Assembly (NCBI GenBank): GCA_964605355.1
Contig: CAZSCE010000001.1
Span: 103-64,102 of the forward strand
DNA from: an uncultured Candidatus Saccharibacteria bacterium
GTDB taxonomy: Bacteria > Patescibacteriota > Minisyncoccia > Phycocordibacterales > GWA1-40-21
Length of the DNA: 64,000 nucleotides
Direction of reading: 5' to 3'
Both the position numbers and the translations under genes were made by a program. Below the pieces are notes generated by a model. The model was given only the letters and a program-made list of their open reading frames with translations, did not search any database and was not told the origin of the DNA. Shown piece after piece: positions 7,993 to 60,821 of the stretch. Each line of letters opens with the position of its first letter. The stretch's first letter is position 1.

Positions 7993-8017
7993 AGTTTTGT
8001 TTGATTAAGGAAGCAAG

Positions 8018-8092
8018 AATTGTTTGAATTTTTTATAGCGTCGGAGCCCACCCGTACTCGGGAAGGGTGAAGCTTAAAAAATTTAAATAATT
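8018..8092. repeat. REP/MITE-like structured intergenic element, copy 1 of 3 (core 8037..8073)
   Basis: The 37-nt core AGCGTCGGAGCCCACCCGTACTCGGGAAGGGTGAAGC is shared with copies at 47447..47483 and 60748..60785. It is flanked by the A+T-rich inverted arms AATTGTTTGAATTTTTT and AAAAAATTTAAATAATT. It lies about 50 nt upstream of the frr start. Confidence 0.7.
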
Positions 8093-8118
8093 TTGATTCC
8101 TGATTACTAATAAATTAA

Positions 8119-8841
8119 TTATAGCACAAGTGCCAGATGTTCCAAAATGACTTTGATGGAGGGTGACTCATCATTGGCATAACTGATGGCTTTCTCAATA
8201 TCTTCAATAGCCAGGAGGCTGCCACTGCGCGCATTATGTGCGTTCTTTACCTTTAGCGTTGATTTAATAACCTTCTCAATATTTTTCAAAAAATTAATAG
8301 CATCACTTTTATTCAGCTTTTCATCTTTTATATCTTTTACAATTTTAGCCACCTGAGTTAAACGCTTCCCCACCTTAGCATTTAGGAATTCTTCAGCTTG
8401 GGCCAGTGGCGTGGCAAACTTACCCTCACCCTTACTAATTATTAATCTGGACTTCAAAGTAGGAAGTAAATCAGAAAATGAGGGGAGAATTAAAAAGAAA
8501 ATAGTATCCGCTCGTGGTTCCTCAAAAATTTTTAATAAAGAATTCTGCGCATCTTTGGTCATAAAATTAGCAGAGATAACAAAAACCTTTCTCTCATACT
8601 TTATGGGCATATTTAAATGCGCTTCATTTATAGCCCGACTATCAATAATTTTAAAAACGTTAAAATCCCCCTGCCAAAAATCCGGATTGTTGGTAACAGG
8701 AAATTTCAAATCCTTCTTTAGGAAATCAAAAAGCTCTTCCTTAACTTTATCCTTGGCCCCTAAAACGCCGTAGGCATGGTGAAGTTGCCCTCGCTTCTTG
8801 TAGTTCTCCCTGATCTGCTTCATAGGTGTAGTATAGCACAC
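8119..8841 (-). CDS. holB: DNA polymerase III delta-prime-like clamp-loader subunit (minimal form)
   Basis: LHHAYGVLG (degenerate P-loop region), NSLLKIFEEP (the NALLKTLEEP box) and LPTLKSRL (SRC-like motif). 240 aa with a truncated C-terminus. Confidence 0.55.
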   Translation of the reverse strand: MCYTTPMKQIRENYKKRGQLHHAYGVLGAKDKVKEELFDFLKKDLKFPVTNNPDFWQGDFNVFKIIDSRAINEAHLNMPIKYERKVFVISANFMTKDAQNSLLKIFEEPRADTIFFLILPSFSDLLPTLKSRLIISKGEGKFATPLAQAEEFLNAKVGKRLTQVAKIVKDIKDEKLNKSDAINFLKNIEKVIKSTLKVKNAHNARSGSLLAIEDIEKAISYANDESPSIKVILEHLALVL

Positions 8842-13803: not shown

Positions 13804-14659
13804 AACTAATATTGCCTTTTTTGGAAATTCAAAATTCTCGGTTTTTTGTTTGGAAGAAATGAAAAATCAGGGTTTGACACCAGCGGTGGTTATTACCACA
13901 CCAGATAAACCCACGGGGCGAAAAATGCTTTTAACTAAAAGCGAAACCAAAGTGTGGGCAGAAAATAATAATGTGCCTTTCATAGAACAAGATAAATTAA
14001 AAGATGAAACTTTCCTAGAAAAACTAAAACAATATGATTTATTTCTTGTGGCCTCATACGGCAAAATCGTGCCAAAAGTTATTCTGGATATGCCTAAATA
14101 TGGTGTTTTAAACATCCACCCATCCCTATTGCCAAAATACCGCGGCCCTTCCCCACTTCAGGAACAAATTCTAAATGATGAAAAAAATGTGGGTGTGACC
14201 GTGATGCTTATGGATGAGCAAGTGGATCATGGACCAATTATTGCTCAGGAAAAACTGCCTGCCCCGAGCCTGTTGAAGGGGCCGGCTAATTTGATTGAAC
14301 TAAAAGAAATCACTGCAAAAACCGGAGTAAAATTGCTGGTAGAAAATTTAGATGCTTGGATTAATAAAAAAATAGAAGCAGAAGAGCAAGATCATGATCA
14401 AGCTACTTTTACTAAAAAGGTGGAGAAGAATGATGGTTTATTAGACCTAGAATTTGGGAAGCCTTATGAGAATTATTTAAAAACCAAGGCTTATTACCCC
14501 TGGCCCGGCACTTTCTTCTTTATTTCTAAGGGTGACAAAAAAATCCGTGTGGTTATCAAGGAATCAGAATATATTGACGGGGCCTTTCATATCCTAAAAG
14601 TTATCCCCGAAGGTAAGAAAGAAATGAGTTATGGTGATTTTCTTCGTGGTCTAAATTAA
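13793..14659 (+). CDS. fmt: methionyl-tRNA formyltransferase
   Basis: The formyltransferase N-domain (IAFFGNS...VLNIHPSLLPKYRGPSPLQ) and the C-terminal Fmt domain are present. The gene is adjacent to def, the usual def-fmt order, and overlaps it by 11 nt. Confidence 0.9.
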   Translation: MINKTNIAFFGNSKFSVFCLEEMKNQGLTPAVVITTPDKPTGRKMLLTKSETKVWAENNNVPFIEQDKLKDETFLEKLKQYDLFLVASYGKIVPKVILDMPKYGVLNIHPSLLPKYRGPSPLQEQILNDEKNVGVTVMLMDEQVDHGPIIAQEKLPAPSLLKGPANLIELKEITAKTGVKLLVENLDAWINKKIEAEEQDHDQATFTKKVEKNDGLLDLEFGKPYENYLKTKAYYPWPGTFFFISKGDKKIRVVIKESEYIDGAFHILKVIPEGKKEMSYGDFLRGLN

Positions 14660-14660
14660 A

Positions 14661-14729
14661 AAAACCTCAGGAATTTCCTCGTAGTGATTAGTCCGCGTTA
14701 AACGGAGAGGATTTTCCTGAGGTTTTTTT
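14661..14729. terminator. long bidirectional hairpin AAAACCTCAGGAA..TCCTC / GAGGA..TTCCTGAGGTTTTTTT
   Basis: An imperfect stem of about 20 bp lies between convergent fmt and the PPIase gene, with T/A runs on both sides. Confidence 0.6.
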
Positions 14730-14731
14730 GA

Positions 14732-15388
14732 TTATTTTACAATCACCTTTGTCACAATAACTGGTGTGAGTGGTAAATCATTTTGACCAGTTTGGGAATT
14801 TTCAATTTTTTCCACCACATCCATACCTGCCGTCACCTTACCAAACACAGTGTGTTTACCAATGAGCCATGGTGTCTCTAGTGCAGTGATAATAAAGAAT
14901 TGGCTACCGTTAGTATTTGGACCAGAATTTGCCATAGCTATCATACCCTTTACCATTGGTAAACTATTTGGCTCATCGGCAAACTTATAACCAGGACCAC
15001 CAGTACCATAAACAGAGGCATCATCACCCTTGGTATATGGATCCCCGCCTTGGATCATAAAACTCTTGATCACCCGGTGAAATTTGGTATTATCATAAAT
15101 ACCGTCTTGAGCTAGCTTTACAAAGTTAGCCACTGTCTTTGGTGCCTTGGCCGGATAAAGCTCTAAATCAATATTTCCTAAACTGGTTTCTATAGTTACT
15201 AATTGTTTTACTTCGGCCATAACTTTTATTGTTTTAACTTCTTTATTTTCTATTAAAGCGGTTGACGTTCCGGTTTGAGAAGCAGGTTTACTTACGCCGG
15301 AGGCATAACCAATTACTAAAACGATAATCACAATAACTATCACATAAAAAATTGCCCCTGGATTAATTATTTTTTTCCAATCTTCCAT
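14732..15388 (-). CDS. cyclophilin-type peptidyl-prolyl cis-trans isomerase, membrane-anchored
   Basis: N-terminal TM helix, then HRVIKSFMIQGGDP...GTGGPGYKFADE...FFIT...HTVFGKV, the cyclophilin signature. Confidence 0.85.
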   Translation of the reverse strand: MEDWKKIINPGAIFYVIVIVIIVLVIGYASGVSKPASQTGTSTALIENKEVKTIKVMAEVKQLVTIETSLGNIDLELYPAKAPKTVANFVKLAQDGIYDNTKFHRVIKSFMIQGGDPYTKGDDASVYGTGGPGYKFADEPNSLPMVKGMIAMANSGPNTNGSQFFIITALETPWLIGKHTVFGKVTAGMDVVEKIENSQTGQNDLPLTPVIVTKVIVK

Positions 15389-15394
15389 AAATAT

Positions 15395-15745
15395 TTACTC
15401 TTGGTCACTAGACATAAAGCCTTTTAATAAATTCTTGATTTGCGCTCCACCCCGCTTTAGCAAACTCACTTTTTTATCTTTGTTTGACTGCAGGGCGTGC
15501 ACCATATCGTCCTTGGCAATATCAATAGAAGCAAATAATTCACCTTGCTCTGATACTGCGCGTAAGTTTTTACCTGAAATGTGGAGGTTTATTTCTGTCC
15601 TAAATACATCACCATTTTTATGATGATTTGAAACTTTACCAAGCTCTACGTCACATAAGGCACTACTATCTGTGGGGTCTATAAATTTTTCCAAATGTGC
15701 CAGTTTCTTATAAAGATAATCCTTTATATCAGGCGTAATCTGCAT
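15395..15745 (-). CDS. hpf: ribosome hibernation promoting factor / RaiA family
   Basis: MQITPDIKDYLYKKLAHLEKF... resembles the HPF N-terminus. The start is set at the internal Met (15745), which matches the canonical MQ(I/L)xITG-type HPF start. Confidence 0.75.
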   Translation of the reverse strand: MQITPDIKDYLYKKLAHLEKFIDPTDSSALCDVELGKVSNHHKNGDVFRTEINLHISGKNLRAVSEQGELFASIDIAKDDMVHALQSNKDKKVSLLKRGGAQIKNLLKGFMSSDQE

Positions 15746-16571: not shown

Positions 16572-17510
16572 TTAATCAAAAAATACGCCTAAATAATTGT
16601 TGATTTTTCTTTGGTCAAGATCGTAAAAATAATCTCCACTTCTGTGAAGCCTCTCAGCTAAATCAACCCCCACAAAACGCCAATGCCATGGTTCGTAAAC
16701 ATAGTAGGAATTACCTTTAGGATAAGATAATATAAAACCATATTTATAAGCATTTTTATTTAACCAGGTATAAGCCTCAGTTTTATCAAAGGTGTCAAAA
16801 GTGTCCTTTAGAACTGCTGTGGTAAAATCTATAGTAGTACCTAATTGATGTTCTGAATAACCCTGATCAGCAGAAAATTGATTTGCTGTCCCCGCTCCAT
16901 AAATAATATTATAAGTAGATTTCAAGGCTGATTGATCACCAAATGATCTATAAGCTGAGATAACTTTTATATCAATACCATCATCAGTAGCTGCTTTTAG
17001 CATTTTTTCTAAAAAAGGCTCCACCTTCCCATAGAACTGATATTTTTTACCATCTTTGTAAACATATTCACTTGGAATATTATCTAAGGTGGCTGGAGTA
17101 TAATTTTCATTTAAGAAGAAAACCTTGGAATATTTCTGTAGTAATTGCGGATCAACCTTACTTAATTTATCCAGAGCCACCGCGGTATCATTTACTTGCT
17201 CCACCTGATCAAGCAAATCACTAGTCTGACTGATCTGATCCTGCACAGTACTATTTAACAAATTGTTTTGGGCCACAATACCGGTAATTTGTTCCTGCAA
17301 ACCCTGAATAGCCCCGGTAAAGGCAACAGTGGTACTAGCTACTTTTTGATTCTGGATCTCAACTGCTTTTTTCAAGGAATAGTTACGGTACTCACCAAAA
17401 CCTATAATTAAAGCCACTAAAACCACCACCCCCATAGTAATAAACACATGATAAGCGGTAAAAACTCGGTGCATCATATCCCTAAATTTTTTTAATTTTT
17501 CCATAGGCAC
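16572..17510 (-). CDS. VanY-type D-alanyl-D-alanine carboxypeptidase (peptidase M15B), membrane-anchored
   Basis: ISAYRSFGDQ, YSEHQLGTTIDF and EPWHWRF are the three zinc/catalytic motifs of VanY/M15. There is an N-terminal TM helix and a coiled-coil-like Gln-rich linker. Confidence 0.7.
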   Translation of the reverse strand: MPMEKLKKFRDMMHRVFTAYHVFITMGVVVLVALIIGFGEYRNYSLKKAVEIQNQKVASTTVAFTGAIQGLQEQITGIVAQNNLLNSTVQDQISQTSDLLDQVEQVNDTAVALDKLSKVDPQLLQKYSKVFFLNENYTPATLDNIPSEYVYKDGKKYQFYGKVEPFLEKMLKAATDDGIDIKVISAYRSFGDQSALKSTYNIIYGAGTANQFSADQGYSEHQLGTTIDFTTAVLKDTFDTFDKTEAYTWLNKNAYKYGFILSYPKGNSYYVYEPWHWRFVGVDLAERLHRSGDYFYDLDQRKINNYLGVFFD

Positions 17511-21668: not shown

Positions 21669-21725
21669 AAGGTGTATATTACACGATTTTTAAATAAATG
21701 CAAGAACAAGGCAATAATTGTTTGA

Positions 21726-21779
21726 TTTTAAAATGTCTGGTTGAGCCGTTCTATGGGCGACCCGAGGACTTTTAAAATT
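21726..21779. repeat. left copy of a roughly 54-bp inverted repeat pair flanking rmuC (partner 22940..22994)
   Basis: TTTTAAAATGTCTGGTTGAGCC...GGCGACCCGAGGACTTTTAAAATT is the reverse complement of 22940..22994 at about 45/54 positions. The divergence is confined to the central 9-10 nt. Confidence 0.8.
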
Positions 21780-21802
21780 AAATAATTATTGCCCTGTTCG
21801 TA

Positions 21803-38387: not shown

Positions 38388-38419
38388 GCGACCGTGAATG
38401 CCACACGGTCGCTTTTTTT
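38388..38419 (+). terminator. intrinsic terminator GCGACCGTG-loop-CACGGTCGC-TTTTTTT
   Basis: Perfect 9-bp stem and a 7-T run. Confidence 0.75.
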
Positions 38420-38522
38420 ATTCAAAATAAATACAACCCCCTTAATCCCCCTTGTCAGGGGGAGATCAGAAACTCCAGCTTTTCCCCTCCCCTGACAAGG
38501 GGAGGGTTAGGGAGGGGTTTTC

Positions 38523-39740
38523 TCATCTCTTATATTTTTCTAAAAATTCTTCCTTATATTCTTCAAATTTATTATCTAAAATAGATTGGCGGATCTGAGC
38601 AACCAGGCCCACCAAAAAATGAATGTTGTGGATGGAGGCGAGCGTACCCGCGAGCATTTCTTTACCATGAAATAAATGGCAAATGTAGGAGCGAGAATAA
38701 TGCTGACAAGTATAACAGGTACAGTCACTTTCTACCGGGCTGACGTCATCTCTAAATTTAGTATTTTCAATATGGATTTTTCCAGACTTGGTATACAGCG
38801 TGCCATTTCTCCCCAGGCGTGTAGGCAAAACACAATCAAATAAATCCACCCCGCTTTCCACCCCCATAAATAAATCCTCTGGCTCCCCTATACCTAACAA
38901 ATGCCGGGGCTTTTCTTCAGGTAATATTTCATTTACCCACCTTACCGCGGTCTGCATATCTTCTTTGGCAAAAGAACCGCCAATACCATAACCGTCAAAA
39001 GTTTTTCCCTCCACCTCTAATTCCGAAATAATTTTGGCTGATTTTTTTCTCAGTCCTTCATCCCGCCCACCTTGTACAATACCAAATAAAGAAACTTTAT
39101 CTTCTGTATTTAGTTTTAAATGCTCTTCAAGCGAGCGTTTGGCCCACGCGTGCGTGCGGTCCAGGGCCTCACCTTGATATTTCAAATCTTCAGTGGGAGC
39201 GGTGCATTCATCAAAAGCAAAAATAATATCCGCGCCTAAATTGTGCTGAATCTGAATTGATTTCTCCGGCGTAATATAATGAACAGAGCCATCCAAATGT
39301 GAAGTAAAAGAAACTCCGTCTTGACCTATTTTTACTAATTTTGGCGCCAAGGAATCATCAAACCGTTCCGGGATTAACAAATTTGGGTCTGTCACCTGGA
39401 GCACTTTGGAAATTCCCTTACCATAAGCGGCCCCCAGGGAAAATACCTGGAATCCCCCAGAGTCCGTCATTGTAGGCCCGGTCCAATTCATCATTTTACC
39501 CAGTCCCCCATTTTTCTTTACTATTTCATCCCCGGGTTGTAAATATAAATGATAAGTATTAGCCAAAACTACCTGCGCCCCGGCTTCTTTCACTTGATCA
39601 GTATTCACAGACTTTACCGTGGCCTTGGTTCCCACCACCACAAAAGCCGGGGTTTCTACCACCCCATGCGCGGTGGTAATTTTCCCCACGCGCCCCATTT
39701 TCCCCTCTAGCTTTTTTTCTATCTTAAAGTCTAATGACAT
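38523..39740 (-). CDS. tgt: queuine tRNA-ribosyltransferase
   Basis: VVETPAFVVVGTKATVKSV...LANTYHLYLQPG...TDSGGFQV and the zinc site CTCYTCQHYSRSYICHL. Confidence 0.9.
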   Translation of the reverse strand: MSLDFKIEKKLEGKMGRVGKITTAHGVVETPAFVVVGTKATVKSVNTDQVKEAGAQVVLANTYHLYLQPGDEIVKKNGGLGKMMNWTGPTMTDSGGFQVFSLGAAYGKGISKVLQVTDPNLLIPERFDDSLAPKLVKIGQDGVSFTSHLDGSVHYITPEKSIQIQHNLGADIIFAFDECTAPTEDLKYQGEALDRTHAWAKRSLEEHLKLNTEDKVSLFGIVQGGRDEGLRKKSAKIISELEVEGKTFDGYGIGGSFAKEDMQTAVRWVNEILPEEKPRHLLGIGEPEDLFMGVESGVDLFDCVLPTRLGRNGTLYTKSGKIHIENTKFRDDVSPVESDCTCYTCQHYSRSYICHLFHGKEMLAGTLASIHNIHFLVGLVAQIRQSILDNKFEEYKEEFLEKYKR

Positions 39741-47418: not shown

Positions 47419-47510
47419 AAAGAGAAAATAATGTTTACAATTTTCAGCGCGTAGGACCCACCCGTACTCGGGAAGGGTGAAGCGTGAAAATTTAAATATT
47501 GTTTTCTCTT
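47419..47510. repeat. REP/MITE-like structured element, copy 2 of 3 (core 47447..47483), in the lexA-operon 5' UTR
   Basis: AGCGCGTAGGACCCACCCGTACTCGGGAAGGGTGAAGC with arms ACAATTTTC / GAAAATTTAAATATTG and the outer complementary pair AAGAGAAAA / TTTTCTCTT. Confidence 0.7.
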
Positions 47511-47527
47511 ATATTATTATGTAGTTA

Positions 47528-47556
47528 AGTATAGGTGAACGCTCGTTCACCGTCAA
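47528..47556 (-). promoter_or_regulatory. SOS promoter: TTGACG - 17-nt spacer - TATACT with a LexA (Cheo-type) operator filling the spacer
   Basis: The minus strand reads TTGACGgtgaacgagcgttcaccTATACT. The 18-bp perfect palindrome GGTGAACGCTCGTTCACC (47534..47551) contains GAAC-N4-GTTC, the Gram-positive-type LexA box. Confidence 0.7.
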
Positions 47557-47646: not shown

Positions 47647-48396
47647 ATGCTACCAATAATTCTTTCATCCCTGGTTATAATGCTGGCTTCCTTGATTGGG
47701 GTGATTTCTGTTTGGAAAAATCTGGGGCAAATTATTGAGAGAAATTTACACTTTTTAGTCAGTTTCTCGGCTGGGGTCTTTCTTTATATTTCCTATGAAT
47801 TATGTCTGGAAACTATTCACGAGGCTCCCACAATTCAGAACGGTTTCTTATGGATTCTGGTTGGTATTTTTGGAGTCTGGTTAATTTTTAAATTACTCCC
47901 CACTTTTCACCACCATCATGACAATGAAACAGAGATTCACGTTCACTCTCAGATTGATGCCCGAAAAATATTGATTAGTGATGGTTTACACAATATTGGT
48001 GATGGTATTTTACTAGTCACATCTTTTACTGTCAGCTTGACCCTGGGTATGGTGGCCACCTTAAGTATTTTTGTTCATGAAATAATCCAAGAAATCTCAG
48101 AATTTTTTGTTCTTCGCGGGGCTGGTTATTCTGTGAGGAAGGCTCTTATTACCAGCTTTGCTATTTCCAGCACCATTTTGATTGGCTCTGTTGGTGGTTT
48201 ATTTTTATTAGACAATTTTAAAGTATTTGAAATCCCCCTCCTGGGCCTAGCCGCTGGTTCATTTTTAATGGTGGTTATCCAAGATCTCATCCCCCATTCT
48301 ATAAAAGTTTCCACCAGCCGCGCCCACATTATAAAACACCTTGCCTGGTTTTTAGCCGGCCTATTAATTATGATAGGGCTGAGTACTATTAGTTAG
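47647..48396 (+). CDS. zupT: ZIP-family metal transporter (ZupT-like)
   Basis: TM protein with a His-rich loop (HHHHDNETEIHVH) and the ZIP signatures LHNIGDGIL and VHEIIQEISEF. Confidence 0.75.
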   Translation: MLPIILSSLVIMLASLIGVISVWKNLGQIIERNLHFLVSFSAGVFLYISYELCLETIHEAPTIQNGFLWILVGIFGVWLIFKLLPTFHHHHDNETEIHVHSQIDARKILISDGLHNIGDGILLVTSFTVSLTLGMVATLSIFVHEIIQEISEFFVLRGAGYSVRKALITSFAISSTILIGSVGGLFLLDNFKVFEIPLLGLAAGSFLMVVIQDLIPHSIKVSTSRAHIIKHLAWFLAGLLIMIGLSTIS

Positions 48397-48436
48397 TTAA
48401 TAAAATTCACAGAATAATATGATTTTGGAGACGTAA

Positions 48437-48642
48437 AATTAAACGTAACCAGAATACAGTGCTAGAGGAGGCTTGGGAGCGCGACGGCGCGAGTTGAGAT
48501 TTGGGGAGGGACCCAAATGAAAGACCTTGAATGTTTTGTATTCAAAATGTGAAAGGTGTACTGTCCCTGTAAGGGACGAGGAATTTTTTAGCAAAAAAAT
48601 ATCCGTGCTCCGGTTAGTACTGTATTCTGGTTACGTTTAATT
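48437..48642. mobile_element. MITE-like element: 24-bp perfect terminal inverted repeats around a roughly 158-bp G+C-richer core
   Basis: AATTAAACGTAACCAGAATACAGT (48437..48460) is the exact reverse complement of 48619..48642. The core contains internal hairpins (GTCCC-tgtaa-GGGAC). The element touches the stop codon of the adjacent gene. Confidence 0.55.
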
Positions 48643-49299
48643 ACAGTAAAGGTACGACTCTGGGATTTCTTTTAGAATTTGGGCGGGCATTTCCGTTAAA
48701 GGTAAATCTTCATTTTGAAGTTTAATAATTATTTCCTTTTTAGATTCCCCAAAAGCAAAAGTGTAAGCCACAGTAATATTCTTTATTGTTTTTAAAGTGA
48801 GAGTAATGCGCCTAAACTTTCCACCATCATAACCACTAGCGGTAGCTTGATCTTTGACCCCCACGGTACCAGGCAAAACCCCGGCTGTATGCCCATCAGT
48901 GCCCAGACCAAACTGCCCTACCACCACCTCGGCCCAAGCTGTCAGATCCCGATATTTCTTGCCAAAATAGATTACTGTTTCCTTTAATTCCAAATCATTT
49001 AAAACCGGCACTGCCTGCACAGCGTCAAAATCAAAACCTGCCTCCCCCAGCTGCTGCCAATTTGAATCAGCGTGGCCCACGGGACCATGGCGCTCATCAG
49101 TGAGAGTCACCGCTAAAATATTTTTCAATTTACCGCCAAAATCTTTTTTTAATTTTTCTAAAACCTCCACTTCAATATTTATATTTGACCCACCAGAAAG
49201 TAACCACAACACATTTTTATTTCCCTTTAAATATTTCCCTATCCCCTCTACCAATATTTTCACCCCCTCCACCTCCCCTTTTATTTTTATAAATTCCAT
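48637..49299 (-). CDS. 6-phosphogluconolactonase-like (NagB/Pgl sugar-phosphate isomerase fold)
   Basis: GLGTDGHTAGVLPG matches the 6-phosphogluconolactonase G(M/L)GxDGHxASlFP box. 220 aa. Confidence 0.65.
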   Translation of the reverse strand: MEFIKIKGEVEGVKILVEGIGKYLKGNKNVLWLLSGGSNINIEVEVLEKLKKDFGGKLKNILAVTLTDERHGPVGHADSNWQQLGEAGFDFDAVQAVPVLNDLELKETVIYFGKKYRDLTAWAEVVVGQFGLGTDGHTAGVLPGTVGVKDQATASGYDGGKFRRITLTLKTIKNITVAYTFAFGESKKEIIIKLQNEDLPLTEMPAQILKEIPESYLYCN

Positions 49300-49315
49300 C
49301 TCACTATCTTAGCAC

Positions 49316-49360
49316 AAAAAAAGAGCGCTATCCCCACACCGGTGTGTGAAAATAGCGCTC
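49316..49360 (-). terminator. intrinsic terminator GAGCGCTAT-loop-ATAGCGCTC plus a 7-U tail (minus strand), the 3' boundary of the high-G+C island
   Basis: 9-bp stem with an internal CACACCGGTGTG palindrome and an A7 run on the plus strand. Confidence 0.7.
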
Positions 49361-49389
49361 CGTGTTGTCATAAAGAACTCCTCGTTAAC

Positions 49390-50571
49390 TCACAGAAGAG
49401 AAAGAATCAGCTCGCCCATTTCTGATGTATGCAAGAGGCTAGAACCTTTGCTGTAAACCAGTGTCAGGTTCGGATCACCACCAACATACATATCCCCCGT
49501 CCGATAGCCCTGCTTCAGAGCCTCACGAACTGCTTCCTCAATGGCTTTTGCGCCCTTCACCGCACCCAAATGCCGGAGCATCATGGCCGCCGTGAGAATG
49601 CGCCCCAGCGGATTAGTTTTGTTCTGCCCAGCCAATGTCGGAGCCGTCCCCGCACCGCTTTCAAACATCGCTGCGCCCGTGTCCGGATTGATGGCCGAAC
49701 TGCACATCATCCCCATACTGCCAAGTGCCGCCGCTGCTCCATCCGAGAGGATGTCCCCGTGCTCATTTCCACAAGCAATGACGCCGTGGAGTTTGGCCGG
49801 AGTGAACAACAGTGCATTCGCCGAGTCTACCAACTGGTGCTGGAGTGGCACGTCCGGGAATTCCGTCCTCCCGATTCTCGTGACAATCTTGCGCCAAAAG
49901 TCATACCGCGCCATCACGTTTGCCTTGTCGATGGAGATGAGAGGCAAGCCCACATCTCTCGCGTAAGTAAACGCCGCCCGGATATACTTCTCAATTGTTT
50001 CCCGGCGATAGTAGGCGATGTCAGAGACGAGCCTCTCGTCACCCGTCACACACTTCTTCAACCTGACGCCGATCCGTTCACAACCATCGCTTGGTATAAG
50101 TGACATCAGATCCTCGTTCCCGAAGTAGCTGTCCTCCAGGAGGAAGCGAATCCAAACCTGGGTGATGCCCTCGGCCGGAATTGTTTCCGGTCTGACGTTG
50201 GCCAAATGCGCCAGCTCCTTGTAGTAGATCATGGGGCGGAAGTTGAGCAACAACCCCATGTCTTTACGCAGTTTCAGCAAACACCTTGACTCCGGCTTCA
50301 TCTCCGGCTTCTCCTTGCCGATGGTGTCGTCCCACTTGGGATCACCCACGCCACCGAAGAAGATTGTGCCGATTTCAACCGCTCTTTTCAGAGACGCTTC
50401 CGGCCGTGTGTCGCCAAACTTTTCGTAGGCGCTCCACCCCATCGGAGTCTTTTCAAAAGCGATCTGGATGTTGTCCTTCTCAGCGGCCTTGATGGCAACA
50501 GCACAAGCCACCGCCATCATCTCCGGACCAGAGCCATCTCCAGTCACCAGAGCAACTGTTTTTTTTATCAT
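49390..50571 (-). CDS. 3-isopropylmalate/isocitrate/homoisocitrate dehydrogenase family enzyme
   Basis: LVTGDGSGPEMM (the GDGIGPEV box) and NEHGDILSDGAAAALGSMGMMCSSAI (the IMDH/IDH signature N-x-x-GD-I-x-SD). High G+C composition. Confidence 0.8.
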   Translation of the reverse strand: MIKKTVALVTGDGSGPEMMAVACAVAIKAAEKDNIQIAFEKTPMGWSAYEKFGDTRPEASLKRAVEIGTIFFGGVGDPKWDDTIGKEKPEMKPESRCLLKLRKDMGLLLNFRPMIYYKELAHLANVRPETIPAEGITQVWIRFLLEDSYFGNEDLMSLIPSDGCERIGVRLKKCVTGDERLVSDIAYYRRETIEKYIRAAFTYARDVGLPLISIDKANVMARYDFWRKIVTRIGRTEFPDVPLQHQLVDSANALLFTPAKLHGVIACGNEHGDILSDGAAAALGSMGMMCSSAINPDTGAAMFESGAGTAPTLAGQNKTNPLGRILTAAMMLRHLGAVKGAKAIEEAVREALKQGYRTGDMYVGGDPNLTLVYSKGSSLLHTSEMGELILSLL

Positions 50572-50645
50572 TTCGCGTTTCCTTTCTTGAGCTGTAACCC
50601 GTGGGCTGATTTTTCATGTCAACCCACGGGTTCATCTTGTTTCGC

Positions 50646-52637
50646 TTACTTCAGCAGTCCTGCTCCCTGCAGTTCCGCCGCCATCTTCACCATTACGCCG
50701 ACGCTTCCGCCGTTACGAATGAGGTCCTTCTGGTATACTGAATGATTGAAAGAAACCCCCTTCAAGCCAACACAGTTGCCAGAGCAACTAGTACTCGGGT
50801 CCATCTCCCAACCTATTGTGCCTTTCTCCCAATCAACACTAATCACTTCAGGCTTCTCGGCGAAGATAGAAGCGATTGTCTCTTTTGGAAGCGTAATGCA
50901 CAACAGTCCGTTGGCAAACATGTTGTTCTCAAAGATGCGAGCAAAGCTCGGTGCAATGACGCACCGAATACCCGCACCCTCGAGTGCCCAAGGCGCATGT
51001 TCACGAGATGAACCGCAACCAAAGTTCTCACCCGCTACCAGTATCTGTGACCCAAAGAGCTTGGGCCAGTCCGCCGACGAAATCGGCGCATCCTCGAGAC
51101 AGTGTTGGCCAAAAGCCTTCTTGTCTGTCTCGGTCAAATACTTGGCCGGAATGATCTGATCAGTATCTACGTTGGCCACCGGCAGGTAAAACACCTTACC
51201 GGAAAAATCCTTCGTCTCCCCCACTCCGAAGAGCTCGAGAAGCTGGCCGTAGTCCGGCCGTTGTGAAGGAACTTCTTTCCAACCCGTGATGCTGGTCAAT
51301 TTCGGAACCGACATCAAACTCACTTCGCGCGCGACCAATCGACAAGTATCTTCAGTTGCCTCTGATACCACTCCGTTGATAGCAGTTTTCGCCGCCGTCG
51401 CCGGTGATGCCAGATGCACCATACCATCCTTGCCCATGCGTCCCGGGAAATTGCGATTCGTCGTCGAAACGCAAACTTCTCCTGGAGCAATCACCCCACA
51501 ACTCATTCCCAGGCAGGCACCGCAAGTGGGACCGCTCACGAAACACCCCGCGTTAGCGAAGATTCCAAACAGCCCTTCCTCAAGTGCCATCTCCCAGATA
51601 TGCTGAGTGGCTGGAACTACAATGCAACGAATATTGTCTGCCACCGGGCGCCCCATCAAACGAAAGATTGTTGCGGCAATCCGCAAATCTTCCAACCGTC
51701 CGTTCGTGCAAGAGCCGATGTAGACCTGGTCAACTTTCTTGCCGGCCAAGTCACTCACCTTCTTCACACAACCTGGTGAATACTCGTCAGTGATGACAGG
51801 AACCATGTCCGAGGCATCAATCTCGATCACCTGATCGTAGACCGCATCCGGATCACTATTCCAGTAGTCGCCCATAAGATAATTCCCAACCTCGAGATTC
51901 TCATGAACTAGGCGCCGGTATCCCGACCCAAGATAATCCATGGTGGTTTGATCCACCATCATCATCCCGGACGTTGCACCTGCTTCCACCGCCATGTTGG
52001 TGATGGTCATCCGCGCTTCCATACTCATCTCATCAATGACTGGGCCACCAAATTCCAACACCGCGTTGGTGGCGCCCTTCACACCAATCTTGCTGATCAG
52101 CGTGAGGATGAGATCTTTGGCGTAAACATTCGCTGGCAATGCGCCGGTGAAGTTCACCCGAATGACTTTCTGAGGTGGACAGATCCAGAGACCGGTTATG
52201 ATGCCGTTCTCCACTTCTGTCGTACCGACACCCGCCGTCAAAGCACAAAAAGCGCCGTGCGTGCAGGTGTGGCTGTCACCCATGATTCCGATCTGGCCCG
52301 GTTTGATCCAGCCCTTCTCAGGAATGACGGCGTGACAAACGCCGTTGCGACCGACGTCCAAAAACTCGATCCCGTGTTCCCGGCTCCAGTTGCGGACAAT
52401 CTGACCTTGAAGGGCCGAAGCCGTATCCTTGGCCGGATTGACGTGATCAATCATGGTCTTGACCTTGTTCGGGTCAAAAACCACATCGCACCCGCGAATC
52501 TTGGCGTCCAGGATAGCGTTTGGTGTCGTAATCTCATGACCCCAAACCCAATCCAGCTGAAGAACCATCCGGCCATCCGGCAAGGTCTTCACACAATGTG
52601 TATCCACGATTTTCTGAAACGCTGTCTTTCCGTTCAT
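50646..52637 (-). CDS. fused aconitase-family dehydratase (LeuC-like large plus LeuD-like small subunit)
   Basis: GVCHAVIPEKG, IGSCTNGRLEDL and the C-terminal GENFGCGSSREHAPWAL. 663 aa, matching the sum of the two subunits. High G+C composition. Confidence 0.8.
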   Translation of the reverse strand: MNGKTAFQKIVDTHCVKTLPDGRMVLQLDWVWGHEITTPNAILDAKIRGCDVVFDPNKVKTMIDHVNPAKDTASALQGQIVRNWSREHGIEFLDVGRNGVCHAVIPEKGWIKPGQIGIMGDSHTCTHGAFCALTAGVGTTEVENGIITGLWICPPQKVIRVNFTGALPANVYAKDLILTLISKIGVKGATNAVLEFGGPVIDEMSMEARMTITNMAVEAGATSGMMMVDQTTMDYLGSGYRRLVHENLEVGNYLMGDYWNSDPDAVYDQVIEIDASDMVPVITDEYSPGCVKKVSDLAGKKVDQVYIGSCTNGRLEDLRIAATIFRLMGRPVADNIRCIVVPATQHIWEMALEEGLFGIFANAGCFVSGPTCGACLGMSCGVIAPGEVCVSTTNRNFPGRMGKDGMVHLASPATAAKTAINGVVSEATEDTCRLVAREVSLMSVPKLTSITGWKEVPSQRPDYGQLLELFGVGETKDFSGKVFYLPVANVDTDQIIPAKYLTETDKKAFGQHCLEDAPISSADWPKLFGSQILVAGENFGCGSSREHAPWALEGAGIRCVIAPSFARIFENNMFANGLLCITLPKETIASIFAEKPEVISVDWEKGTIGWEMDPSTSCSGNCVGLKGVSFNHSVYQKDLIRNGGSVGVMVKMAAELQGAGLLK

Positions 52638-60711: not shown

Positions 60712-60720
60712 ATTTCTTTA

Positions 60721-60812
60721 GAGCTCTGGTATTGTTCTAATTTTTTGTCGCGTAGGACCCACCCGTACTCGGGAAGGGTGAAGCGCAAATAATTTGAATA
60801 ATACCAGAGCTC
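60721..60812. repeat. REP/MITE-like structured element, copy 3 of 3 (core 60748..60785) between serS and the ftsQ-like gene
   Basis: GTCGCGTAGGACCCACCCGTACTCGGGAAGGGTGAAGC with arms CTAATTTTTT / AAATAATTTGAATAAT and the outer 13-bp complementary pair GAGCTCTGGTATT / AATACCAGAGCTC. Confidence 0.75.
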
Positions 60813-60821
60813 TTAATAATA

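Follow-up and report, generated by a model that had tools for sequence, protein, structure and literature searches.

Repetitive extragenic palindromic elements (REPs) are imperfect palindromes that carry a GTAG tetranucleotide 5′ of the foot (PMC3333891). In the 2013 survey by Di Nocera (PMC3733652), GTAG-1 and GTAG-2 REPs are described as having a 3-nt tail and, following the tag, two unpaired nucleotides, as tolerating degeneracy of the tag (GTMG), and as commonly containing G·T pairs; some REP families are nested in longer palindromes, of which no "empty" versions were found. Nunvar 2010 (PMC2817692) gives the Pseudomonas and Xanthomonas REPs as GTAGGAGCCAGCTTGCTGGCGAA and GTAGGAGCGCACCtGGGCGCGAC, and states that Escherichia coli REPs and bacterial interspersed mosaic elements (BIMEs) bind several proteins. 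Here we describe family A, a REP-like hairpin repeat present in three copies in a 64,000-nt stretch of contig CAZSCE010000001.1 (the whole stretch is referred to below as the window), from an uncultured bacterium of the candidate phyla radiation (CPR, or Patescibacteria). Related genomes carry family A at sites that differ from one genome to another, gain or loss affects the hairpin as a whole, and its arms show compensatory pairing specifically on the GTAG-tagged strand. With moderate confidence, we interpret family A as a non-autonomous, REP-like mobile palindrome of ~95 to 110 nt, restricted to a clade of Paceibacteria and cotranscribed with its neighbors; the hairpin is most likely selfish, occasionally mobile DNA carried in mRNAs, and not a dedicated gene switch.

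The window contains exactly three instances of the 27-nt family A core, CCCACCCGTACTCGGGAAGGGTGAAGC, all on the plus strand (8047, 47457, and 60758); zero are expected by chance, as estimated from 100 dinucleotide-preserving shuffles of the window with up to three mismatches allowed. Each core forms the tip of one long hairpin of ~92 to 94 nt, and the folding z-scores of these hairpins against shuffled sequence range from −4.6 to −9.9. Scores in bits are those of the covariance model described below.

8008 to 8101, plus strand: family A copy 1, full hairpin; in the frr 5′ leader, antisense to frr and holB; a GTCG-tagged variant (83.7 bits)
8040 to 8073, plus strand: REP-like tip of copy 1, with GTCG at 8040 to 8043, GA(G), the imperfect stem-loop CCCACCCG-TACT-CGGGAAGGG, and the tail TGAAGC at 8068 to 8073
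47420 to 47510, plus strand: family A copy 2, full hairpin; in the leader of an operon comprising a 71-amino-acid (aa) open reading frame (ORF) and an S24 LexA-like gene; GTAG at 47451 to 47454 (92.8 bits)
60720 to 60813, plus strand: family A copy 3, full hairpin; fills the serS-ftsQ spacer; GTAG at 60752 to 60755 (107.3 bits)

The genes around all three copies lie on the minus strand: copy 1 is between a holB-like gene and frr, copy 2 is upstream of the 71-aa ORF, which is followed by the S24 (LexA-like) gene, and copy 3 is between serS and an FtsQ-like gene. Direct inspection of the sequence bore out the three conserved-core loci of the original prediction, the sequences quoted there, the A/T-rich arms, and the copy-specific outer pairs. 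The extent first proposed for the element, 8018 to 8092, falls inside copy 1 but takes in only the inner part of the full hairpin. The element had also been said to lie always about 50 nt upstream of gene starts. The next minus-strand start codon does lie 55 nt (frr), 52 nt (lexA-operon ORF), and 47 to 48 nt (ftsQ-like gene) from the core, but this does not hold as a rule: in other genomes, copies lie after rplL and rplS, where they look terminator-like, between cistrons, and in divergent regions. The similar spacing in the window is a by-product, because half a hairpin plus a few bases makes up the distance. The hairpins of copies 1 and 3 stand 6 to 17 nt from the adjacent ORFs and fill the intergenic gaps; at many copies, the hairpin-to-ORF distance is 2 to 17 nt. 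All copies are intergenic, and their neighbors are unrelated housekeeping genes with no common function.

Altogether, we collected 19 distinct copies of family A, 17 complete and 2 cut by contig ends, from the window, related Paceibacteria metagenome-assembled genomes (MAGs), and metagenome contigs (L numbers below are labels of these loci). One core scan of species-representative genomes yielded 10 loci in 4 MAGs, and one metagenome scan yielded 11 true loci together with 5 high-GC chance matches; 2 of the 19, both diverged, came from a search with a covariance model built on 17 copies. One of the loci, L021, is a near-identical orthologue of copy 2. Copy number is three per 64 kb in the window, and one fragmented MAG contains six exact cores. 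These additional copies and the long hairpin fold agree with the earlier description of a structured, multicopy, REP- or MITE-like element (MITE, miniature inverted-repeat transposable element). Viral contigs, phage records, and E. coli genomes contained no family A match; therefore, the element is neither phage-borne nor a fragment of rRNA, tRNA, or RNase P as represented in E. coli. Nor was a copy present in the ~20 kb surveyed around each of L027, L028, L031, L034, and L035. Covariance models from Rfam, proposed earlier as a check on the element, matched it to no family: at the gathering threshold, the whole window gave two tRNAs only, and in E-value mode, copy 1 and the sister family B (see below) gave only generic hairpin noise (miRNA precursors). 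The core string retrieved only chance primer matches from the literature.

The host range of family A appears narrow. The window organism was placed in Paceibacteria (Parcubacteria), near Candidatus Taylorbacteria. Two MAGs that contributed loci, CAYVWL (L002, L010, and L033) and CAZAJY (L004 to L009), are titled "uncultured Candidatus Saccharibacteria bacterium" but gene order and protein identity place both in Paceibacteria: CAYVWL contig L033 shares synteny with the window and encodes a Frr 88% identical to that of the window, and the CAZAJY release factor RF2 is 76% identical to Paceibacterota proteins, one of which is encoded on the contig that yielded L027. The "Saccharibacteria" titles of both records are likely mislabeled. 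Horizontal transfer across classes, between Saccharibacteria and Paceibacteria, was ruled out, both "Saccharibacteria" MAGs being Paceibacteria. Since CAYVWL and CAZAJY are relatives of the window organism, family A is clade restricted and not common to different CPR classes.

We refer to the tagged (GTAG/GTCG) strand of the element, which is the plus strand of the window, as E+. Its tip follows the layout GT[A/C]GGA(G)-CCCACCCGTACTCGGGAAGGG-TGAAG, that is, a GC-rich imperfect stem-loop between the tag plus GA and a GAA tail. As a fold, E+ comprises a tip hairpin (ACCC-A-CCCG / UACU / CGGG-AA-GGGU); an asymmetric, purine-rich internal loop (U[A/C]GGA(G) facing (U/G)GAA); A/T-rich inner arms that approximate TT[C/A/G]AAATTTTTCG(T)CGC ... 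GCGCGAATAATTT[G/T]AA; and, outermost, copy-specific outer arms. The tag is GTAG in copies 2 and 3 and in most others and GTCG in copy 1, L004, L005, L008, L009, and L010b; the variants GTAGGA-C and GTCGGAGC occur side by side in single genomes. What was first called a fixed core is exact in the copies found by core match, but the covariance-model variants have a different tip: in these two diverged copies, the innermost tip is replaced, and the head GT[A/C]GGA(G)CCC and the tail GGGT[G/T]AAGCG are retained. The GA after the tag and (T/G)GAA(G) after the stem are found in all copies, the diverged ones included.

The tip thus has the anatomy of a REP (a GC-rich imperfect palindrome of 20 to 40 nt with GTAG, or GTMG/GTRG, 5′ of its foot) and, within REPs, that of GTAG-1/2, in which two unpaired nucleotides separate tag from stem and a conserved 3-nt tail stands at the other end. 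The order GT[A/C]G, GA, GC-rich imperfect stem-loop, and GAA tail may be compared directly with GTAGGAGCCAGCTTGCTGGCGAA. Family A also shares with GTAG-tagged REPs the GTMG degeneracy, the G·T pairs on the tagged strand, an intergenic location near ORF ends, abundance that varies between related genomes, several families per genome, and, with some REP families, nesting in a longer palindrome. It differs in that a single REP-like unit sits on a ~100-nt A/T-rich hairpin that is copied whole, and in a copy number that seems far lower, REPs usually exceeding 100 per genome. Family A is not a REPIN or BIME, which consist of two inverted REPs and a short linker: each family A hairpin has one tagged unit, its arms are A/T-rich and unrelated to the tip, and no inverted dimers were seen.

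Two other groups of palindromic repeats resemble family A in part. Rickettsia palindromic elements (RPEs) are likewise palindromic units of ~100 to 150 nt in small, A/T-rich genomes, with several families, patchy presence, no known transposase, and no clear terminal repeats, and RPE-4 and RPE-6 are themselves tagged REPs; RPEs, however, are often in frame within genes and have no sequence similarity to family A. Bacterial MITEs (Correia/NEMIS, RUP, and ERIC) are also short, noncoding, hairpin-forming, multicopy, and cotranscribed, and they may carry or abut promoters or terminators, but they have conserved terminal inverted repeats and target-site duplications, whereas the ends of family A are its least conserved part. 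Readings of the tip as a K-turn, a sarcin-ricin/loop E motif, or a hammerhead were dismissed by eye, since key positions do not fit. The core also contains GGGAAGGG, similar to the FtsK orienting polar sequence (KOPS) consensus; its orientation is wrong for an FtsK signal, and we take it as a coincidence.

The stems of family A covary. In the 17-copy alignment, 95.7% of cells are paired, compared to 33 to 51% when partners are slid, and both partners have changed at 19 of the 29 stem pairs, values reached by none of 500 shuffles. The covariation of the outer stem, originally proposed from the three window copies, is therefore upheld across several genomes. Tip and inner arms are kept among copies, the inner arms too showing compensatory changes (CG to UA and GC to AU); outer arms differ yet remain paired, and the outer stems have no second match elsewhere in the window, so that their having been copied from another place in it was rejected. 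Conservation falls off gradually outward, without a sharp boundary, the outer ends being the most variable part. Outer-arm sequence is common to three non-orthologous copies (L005, L022b, and L004) and thus was copied with the element, subsequently becoming the fastest part to diverge.

Comparison of orthologous junctions revealed where family A is absent. In L027, L028, and L029 (FtsQ 60 to 62% identical), serS runs 14 nt into ftsQ, and the hairpin is absent. Removal of the ~112-nt hairpin from the window leaves GATAACGAA joined to ATGTCAG, which matches GATAACAAATGTCC of L027. L012 (FtsQ 59%) has a family A copy at serS-ftsQ and, as in the window, TA[A/G]TATTATT after the serS stop codon, but its outer arms are entirely different; in P0002 (FtsQ 75%), the serS-ftsQ gap is 112 nt. 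At holB-frr, L034 (Frr 86%) retains the TGCTATAAT −10 element over the holB stop codon and lacks the hairpin. The holB-frr junctions of L033 and L035 are also without it, and the CAYVWL MAG carries family A at other loci (L002 and L010) and not at this junction. Both serS-ftsQ and holB-frr therefore show the pattern that identifies a mobile element, in which an orthologous site is occupied in some genomes and cleanly empty in others. Since these empty sites lack a hairpin of any kind, what is gained or lost is the whole hairpin, outer arms included, and its turnover, whichever of gain or loss it represents, is on the time scale of genus-level divergence. Two side observations concern the same junctions: the 14-nt serS/ftsQ overlap, at about 10001 to 10014 in L027 and L028, shows how tightly these genomes are packed, and the holB-frr spacer of L035 (9650 to 9960) contains ~300 nt of inserted GC-rich sequence, which appears structured, has a terminator-like hairpin at its end, and is without an Rfam match at E ≤ 0.01.

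The empty sites also bear on a scenario in which only a module of ~65 nt moves, inserting into the loops of pre-existing hairpins such as terminators, so that the outer stems would be host sequence. The outer stems of L002, L008, L010, L019, and L022 do resemble intrinsic terminators (AAAAAGCCCC...GGGGCTTTT), L031 has at its serS-ftsQ junction only a small simple hairpin (17 nt; CCAAGGTGAAACCTTGG), and REPs nested in palindromes are known. We consider loop insertion quite improbable, because two junctions have empty sites without any hairpin, because conservation decays gradually, and because outer-arm sequence is common to non-orthologous copies; for insertion into terminator loops in particular, the serS-ftsQ and holB-frr empty sites are a direct contradiction. 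Of the three roles that had been suggested for the element at the outset, a small non-autonomous mobile element is the best fit, given the empty orthologous junctions and the GTAG-REP build.

The two strands of family A are not equivalent. With RNA parameters, E+ of copies 1, 2, and 3 folds at −38.3, −42.6, and −51.8 kcal/mol and the minus strand at −26.2, −32.0, and −46.1 kcal/mol; with DNA parameters, the values are −24.6, −25.7, and −31.1 for the plus strand and −17.1, −22.2, and −29.0 for the minus strand. E+ is the more stable strand in 17 of 17 full copies (RNA parameters) and in all 3 window copies (DNA parameters), the mRNA-strand hairpin of the full copies being weaker by 0.7 to 15 kcal/mol (median, about 5). 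An arm-versus-arm census found 23 G·T pairs on E+ (2 of them from one orthologous duplicate) versus 3 A·C pairs, among 528 Watson-Crick pairs; an alignment-based count gave 22 versus 4. The known replication and transcription mutation biases would be expected to favor the opposite sign of this asymmetry. In addition, E+ is antisense to the neighboring genes in 14 of 15 informative, nondivergent contexts, L004 being the exception. The original prediction had the hairpin selected in the minus-strand mRNA; the 23-to-3 excess of G·T pairs on the plus strand, and the better folding of that strand in every copy, argue against this.

The same asymmetry weighs on the possibility that family A is a host cis-acting RNA, i.e., an mRNA hairpin kept at each locus to stabilize, process, or terminate the transcript (as a leader stem-loop, an RNase III-type site, or an intrinsic terminator), with spread being secondary. 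The mRNA strand is certainly transcribed, and promoter-like sites lie ~10 nt upstream of the hairpin base of two window copies:

8118 to 8145, minus strand: promoter-like site TTGGAA-16-(TG)TATAAT immediately before copy 1 on the gene strand, with its −10 element lying over the holB stop codon; the site is conserved in L034 (consensus match only)
47528 to 47556, minus strand: σ70-like promoter-like site TTGACG-17-TATACT just upstream of copy 2 (consensus match only)

These sites end ~10 nt before the hairpin base, and copies 1 and 2 are therefore near the 5′ ends of transcripts; copy 3 is intercistronic. Moreover, about half of the copies in other genomes have the A-run/T-run look of bidirectional terminators, as after rplL and rplS, and all copies are well paired. 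We nevertheless judge a primary cis-acting role unlikely. The wobble pairs are on the other strand, leaving the mRNA hairpin with A·C mismatches and weaker in 17 of 17 copies; close relatives lack the hairpin at orthologous junctions; an invariant 35-nt tip is not needed by a terminator or stabilizer; and a terminator scan of the window found no terminator-like site or U-tract at the three copies, as an intrinsic terminator would have. What is certain to be transcribed is the complementary hairpin, the weaker of the two, as part of mRNAs.

The promoter-like site upstream of copy 2 also supports the earlier proposal that the lexA element is part of a 5′ leader. Between its −35 and −10 hexamers is the palindrome GAACGCTCGTTC (47537 to 47548; GAAC-N4-GTTC), which is of the LexA-box type. 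Independently of the repeat, this putative GAACGCTCGTTC promoter upstream of the 71-aa ORF and the S24 LexA-like gene suggests an autoregulated SOS-type operon in a CPR genome.

Could the GTAG strand itself be functional as a transcript, whether as an antisense RNA, as a terminator of antisense transcription, or as a trans-pairing RNA made from rare sense copies such as L004? Structure is selected on this strand, the internal loops are purine rich (UAGGA / GAA), and the strand is antisense to its neighbors in nearly all informative contexts. We found no plus-strand promoter-like site upstream of copies 1 and 3, and ORFs 2 to 17 nt away on both sides leave no room for a promoter; because the hairpins abut ORFs and lack such sites, an independent E+ transcript is unlikely. 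A promoter belonging to the GTAG-strand RNA was likewise rejected for want of a consistent motif and of room. Together with the lack of an Rfam match and the patchy distribution among relatives, this makes a functional GTAG-strand transcript highly improbable.

A role at the level of duplex DNA, with a nucleoid protein or gyrase binding the element in the manner of a BIME or with a cruciform affecting nearby promoters, deserves mention because the proteins bound by E. coli REPs and BIMEs include IHF and gyrase. It would suit the invariant tip and the two copies that adjoin promoter-like sites. The G·T/A·C asymmetry, though, points to a single-stranded form and not to duplex recognition, the tip is not a true dyad, and close relatives lack the element; we regard such a role as very unlikely.

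A mobile, single-stranded DNA form of family A could reconcile these features. The element would spread as single-stranded DNA of the GTAG strand, recognized by a trans-acting enzyme that, by analogy with REPs, may be a Y1 HUH nuclease of the RAYT (REP-associated tyrosine transposase) type. If copies spread via the GTAG single strand, lineages that multiply must keep that strand foldable; selection along the lineages of active copies might then produce both the covariation and the G·T asymmetry without a host function. After insertion, the element would be transcribed together with its neighbors, as the weaker hairpin of the complementary strand, and would there be tolerated or of slight benefit as a leader stem-loop (frr and the lexA operon), as an intercistronic hairpin (serS-ftsQ), or as a bidirectional terminator after rplL and rplS in other genomes. 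Benefit to the host, for example through stability or termination, is plausible, but we infer that family A is not a ligand- or gene-specific regulator.

The subterminal hairpins of IS200/IS605 insertion sequences and of their palindrome-associated transposable element (PATE) derivatives offer a parallel for such spread: they too are strand-specific imperfect hairpins with a short conserved motif 5′ of the foot, and a Y1 HUH enzyme recognizes them in single-stranded DNA, as we propose by analogy for family A. Unlike family A, they comprise two different end hairpins with defined cleavage sites, and their active strand is on the lagging-strand template, the opposite of what the orientation of family A to genes suggests.

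Several observations weigh against mobility as the explanation. If genes are co-oriented with replication, the foldable strand of family A would be on the leading-strand template, at odds with the IS608/IS200 paradigm just mentioned. A weak tblastn screen with RAYT and IS200 TnpA queries, covering 361 kb of scattered loci, revealed no RAYT/Y1 or other transposase; the RAYT gene associated with REPs is typically flanked by them. The copy number, about three per 64 kb in the window and six exact cores in one MAG, seems low for a REP. The flanks and ends show neither a consistent target-site duplication nor a conserved terminal sequence, as judged by inspection and from the copies whose helix boundaries were resolved; a TAATC...TAATC direct repeat flanks copy 1 only. 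The FtsQ tree is star-like, so that gain and loss are not rigorously polarizable. Part of the apparent invariance of the tip comes from ascertainment, since most copies were recovered through an exact match to the core. Finally, every copy that we found is well paired, which could instead reflect selection for a host function at each locus.

The antisense bias of E+ has three possible sources. First, E+ may be counter-selected in mRNA, where it would present the stronger hairpin as well as GGGUGA, which is Shine-Dalgarno-like in view of the 16S rRNA 3′ end. Second, the single-stranded DNA may come from a different source. Third, there may be real host-level selection on the E+ strand. Such selection on the antisense GTAG strand at every locus, beyond descent from active copies, seems to us a slight prospect; it might take either of two forms. 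The structure of the template strand or of an antisense transcript could insulate the tightly packed CPR genes, or sense-oriented copies (L004, upstream of a dksA-like gene) could give rise to an RNA that couples the fate of complementary mRNAs in a trans-acting network, with possibly at least 45 nt of perfect complementarity to the leaders of frr, the lexA operon, ftsQ, and other mRNAs.

The family A covariance model also picked up two sister families in the window, B and C, bringing to six the hairpins of shared build in these 64 kb:

21706 to 21800, plus strand: family B copy 1, between rmuC and rplU; built like family A, with GTTTGATTTTAAAATGTCTGG, a variable tip, and CCCGAGGACTTTTAAAATTAAA
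22919 to 23013, minus strand: family B copy 2, in the rmuC/yqeY divergent region
14652 to 14738, plus strand: family C hairpin of 87 nt, between convergent fmt-like and ppiase (cyclophilin) genes; tip CGTAGTGATTAGTCCGCGTTAAACGG

In its A/T-rich arms, family B is similar to family A copy 1, and one of its strands has a conserved G·U pair. Further family B copies occur in L015, L019, L030, L032, and L034. In L015 (1395 to 1593), a family A and a family B copy are in tandem, 14 nt apart and in the same orientation; in L030 and L032, family B occupies the serS-ftsQ junction with its G·U strand in sense orientation, opposite to family A. Family B has no orientation bias. Family C has an outer stem with the look of a bidirectional terminator (A7 plus CCTCAGG...CCTGAGG plus T7), and its tip, which includes GATTAGTC[C/T]GCGTTAA, is conserved in two L030 copies (15339 to 15421 and 16910 to 16994).

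Two other features of the window were noted in passing. At 38440 to 38530, following an ordinary terminator at ~38388 to 38420, an A/T-rich spacer contains a dense, GC-rich nested palindrome (CCCCTTGTCAGGGG ... CCCCTGACAAGGGG, with AGGGGAGGG repeats) that has no Rfam match at the gathering threshold. The region from 48001 to 52000 has a G+C content of 0.49, compared to about 0.38 elsewhere, and carries 6-phosphogluconolactonase-like, isocitrate/isopropylmalate dehydrogenase, and aconitase genes; it may be a horizontally acquired block.

The sections of the 2013 REP survey (Di Nocera; PMC3733652) available to us cover eight phyla and name no CPR group, and a 2025 REP survey names no Patescibacteria. 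Our search of the literature on CPR repeats found no report of REP-like elements in CPR bacteria. What appears to be new here is a REP-like repeat in a CPR bacterium, from a little-studied phylum, in the form of a single tagged unit on a long, A/T-rich hairpin. CPR genomes are regarded as streamlined and poor in repeats; three related hairpin-repeat families with clean empty sites offer a handle on the genome dynamics of these uncultivated bacteria and a population marker. Family A is also a test case for the spread of REP-type elements where no RAYT is known, and its strand asymmetry, with G·T pairs on one strand and that strand antisense to genes, poses a testable puzzle as to which single-stranded form is biologically active. 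For annotation, the finding is a warning that such hairpins should not be taken for gene-specific leaders or riboswitches.

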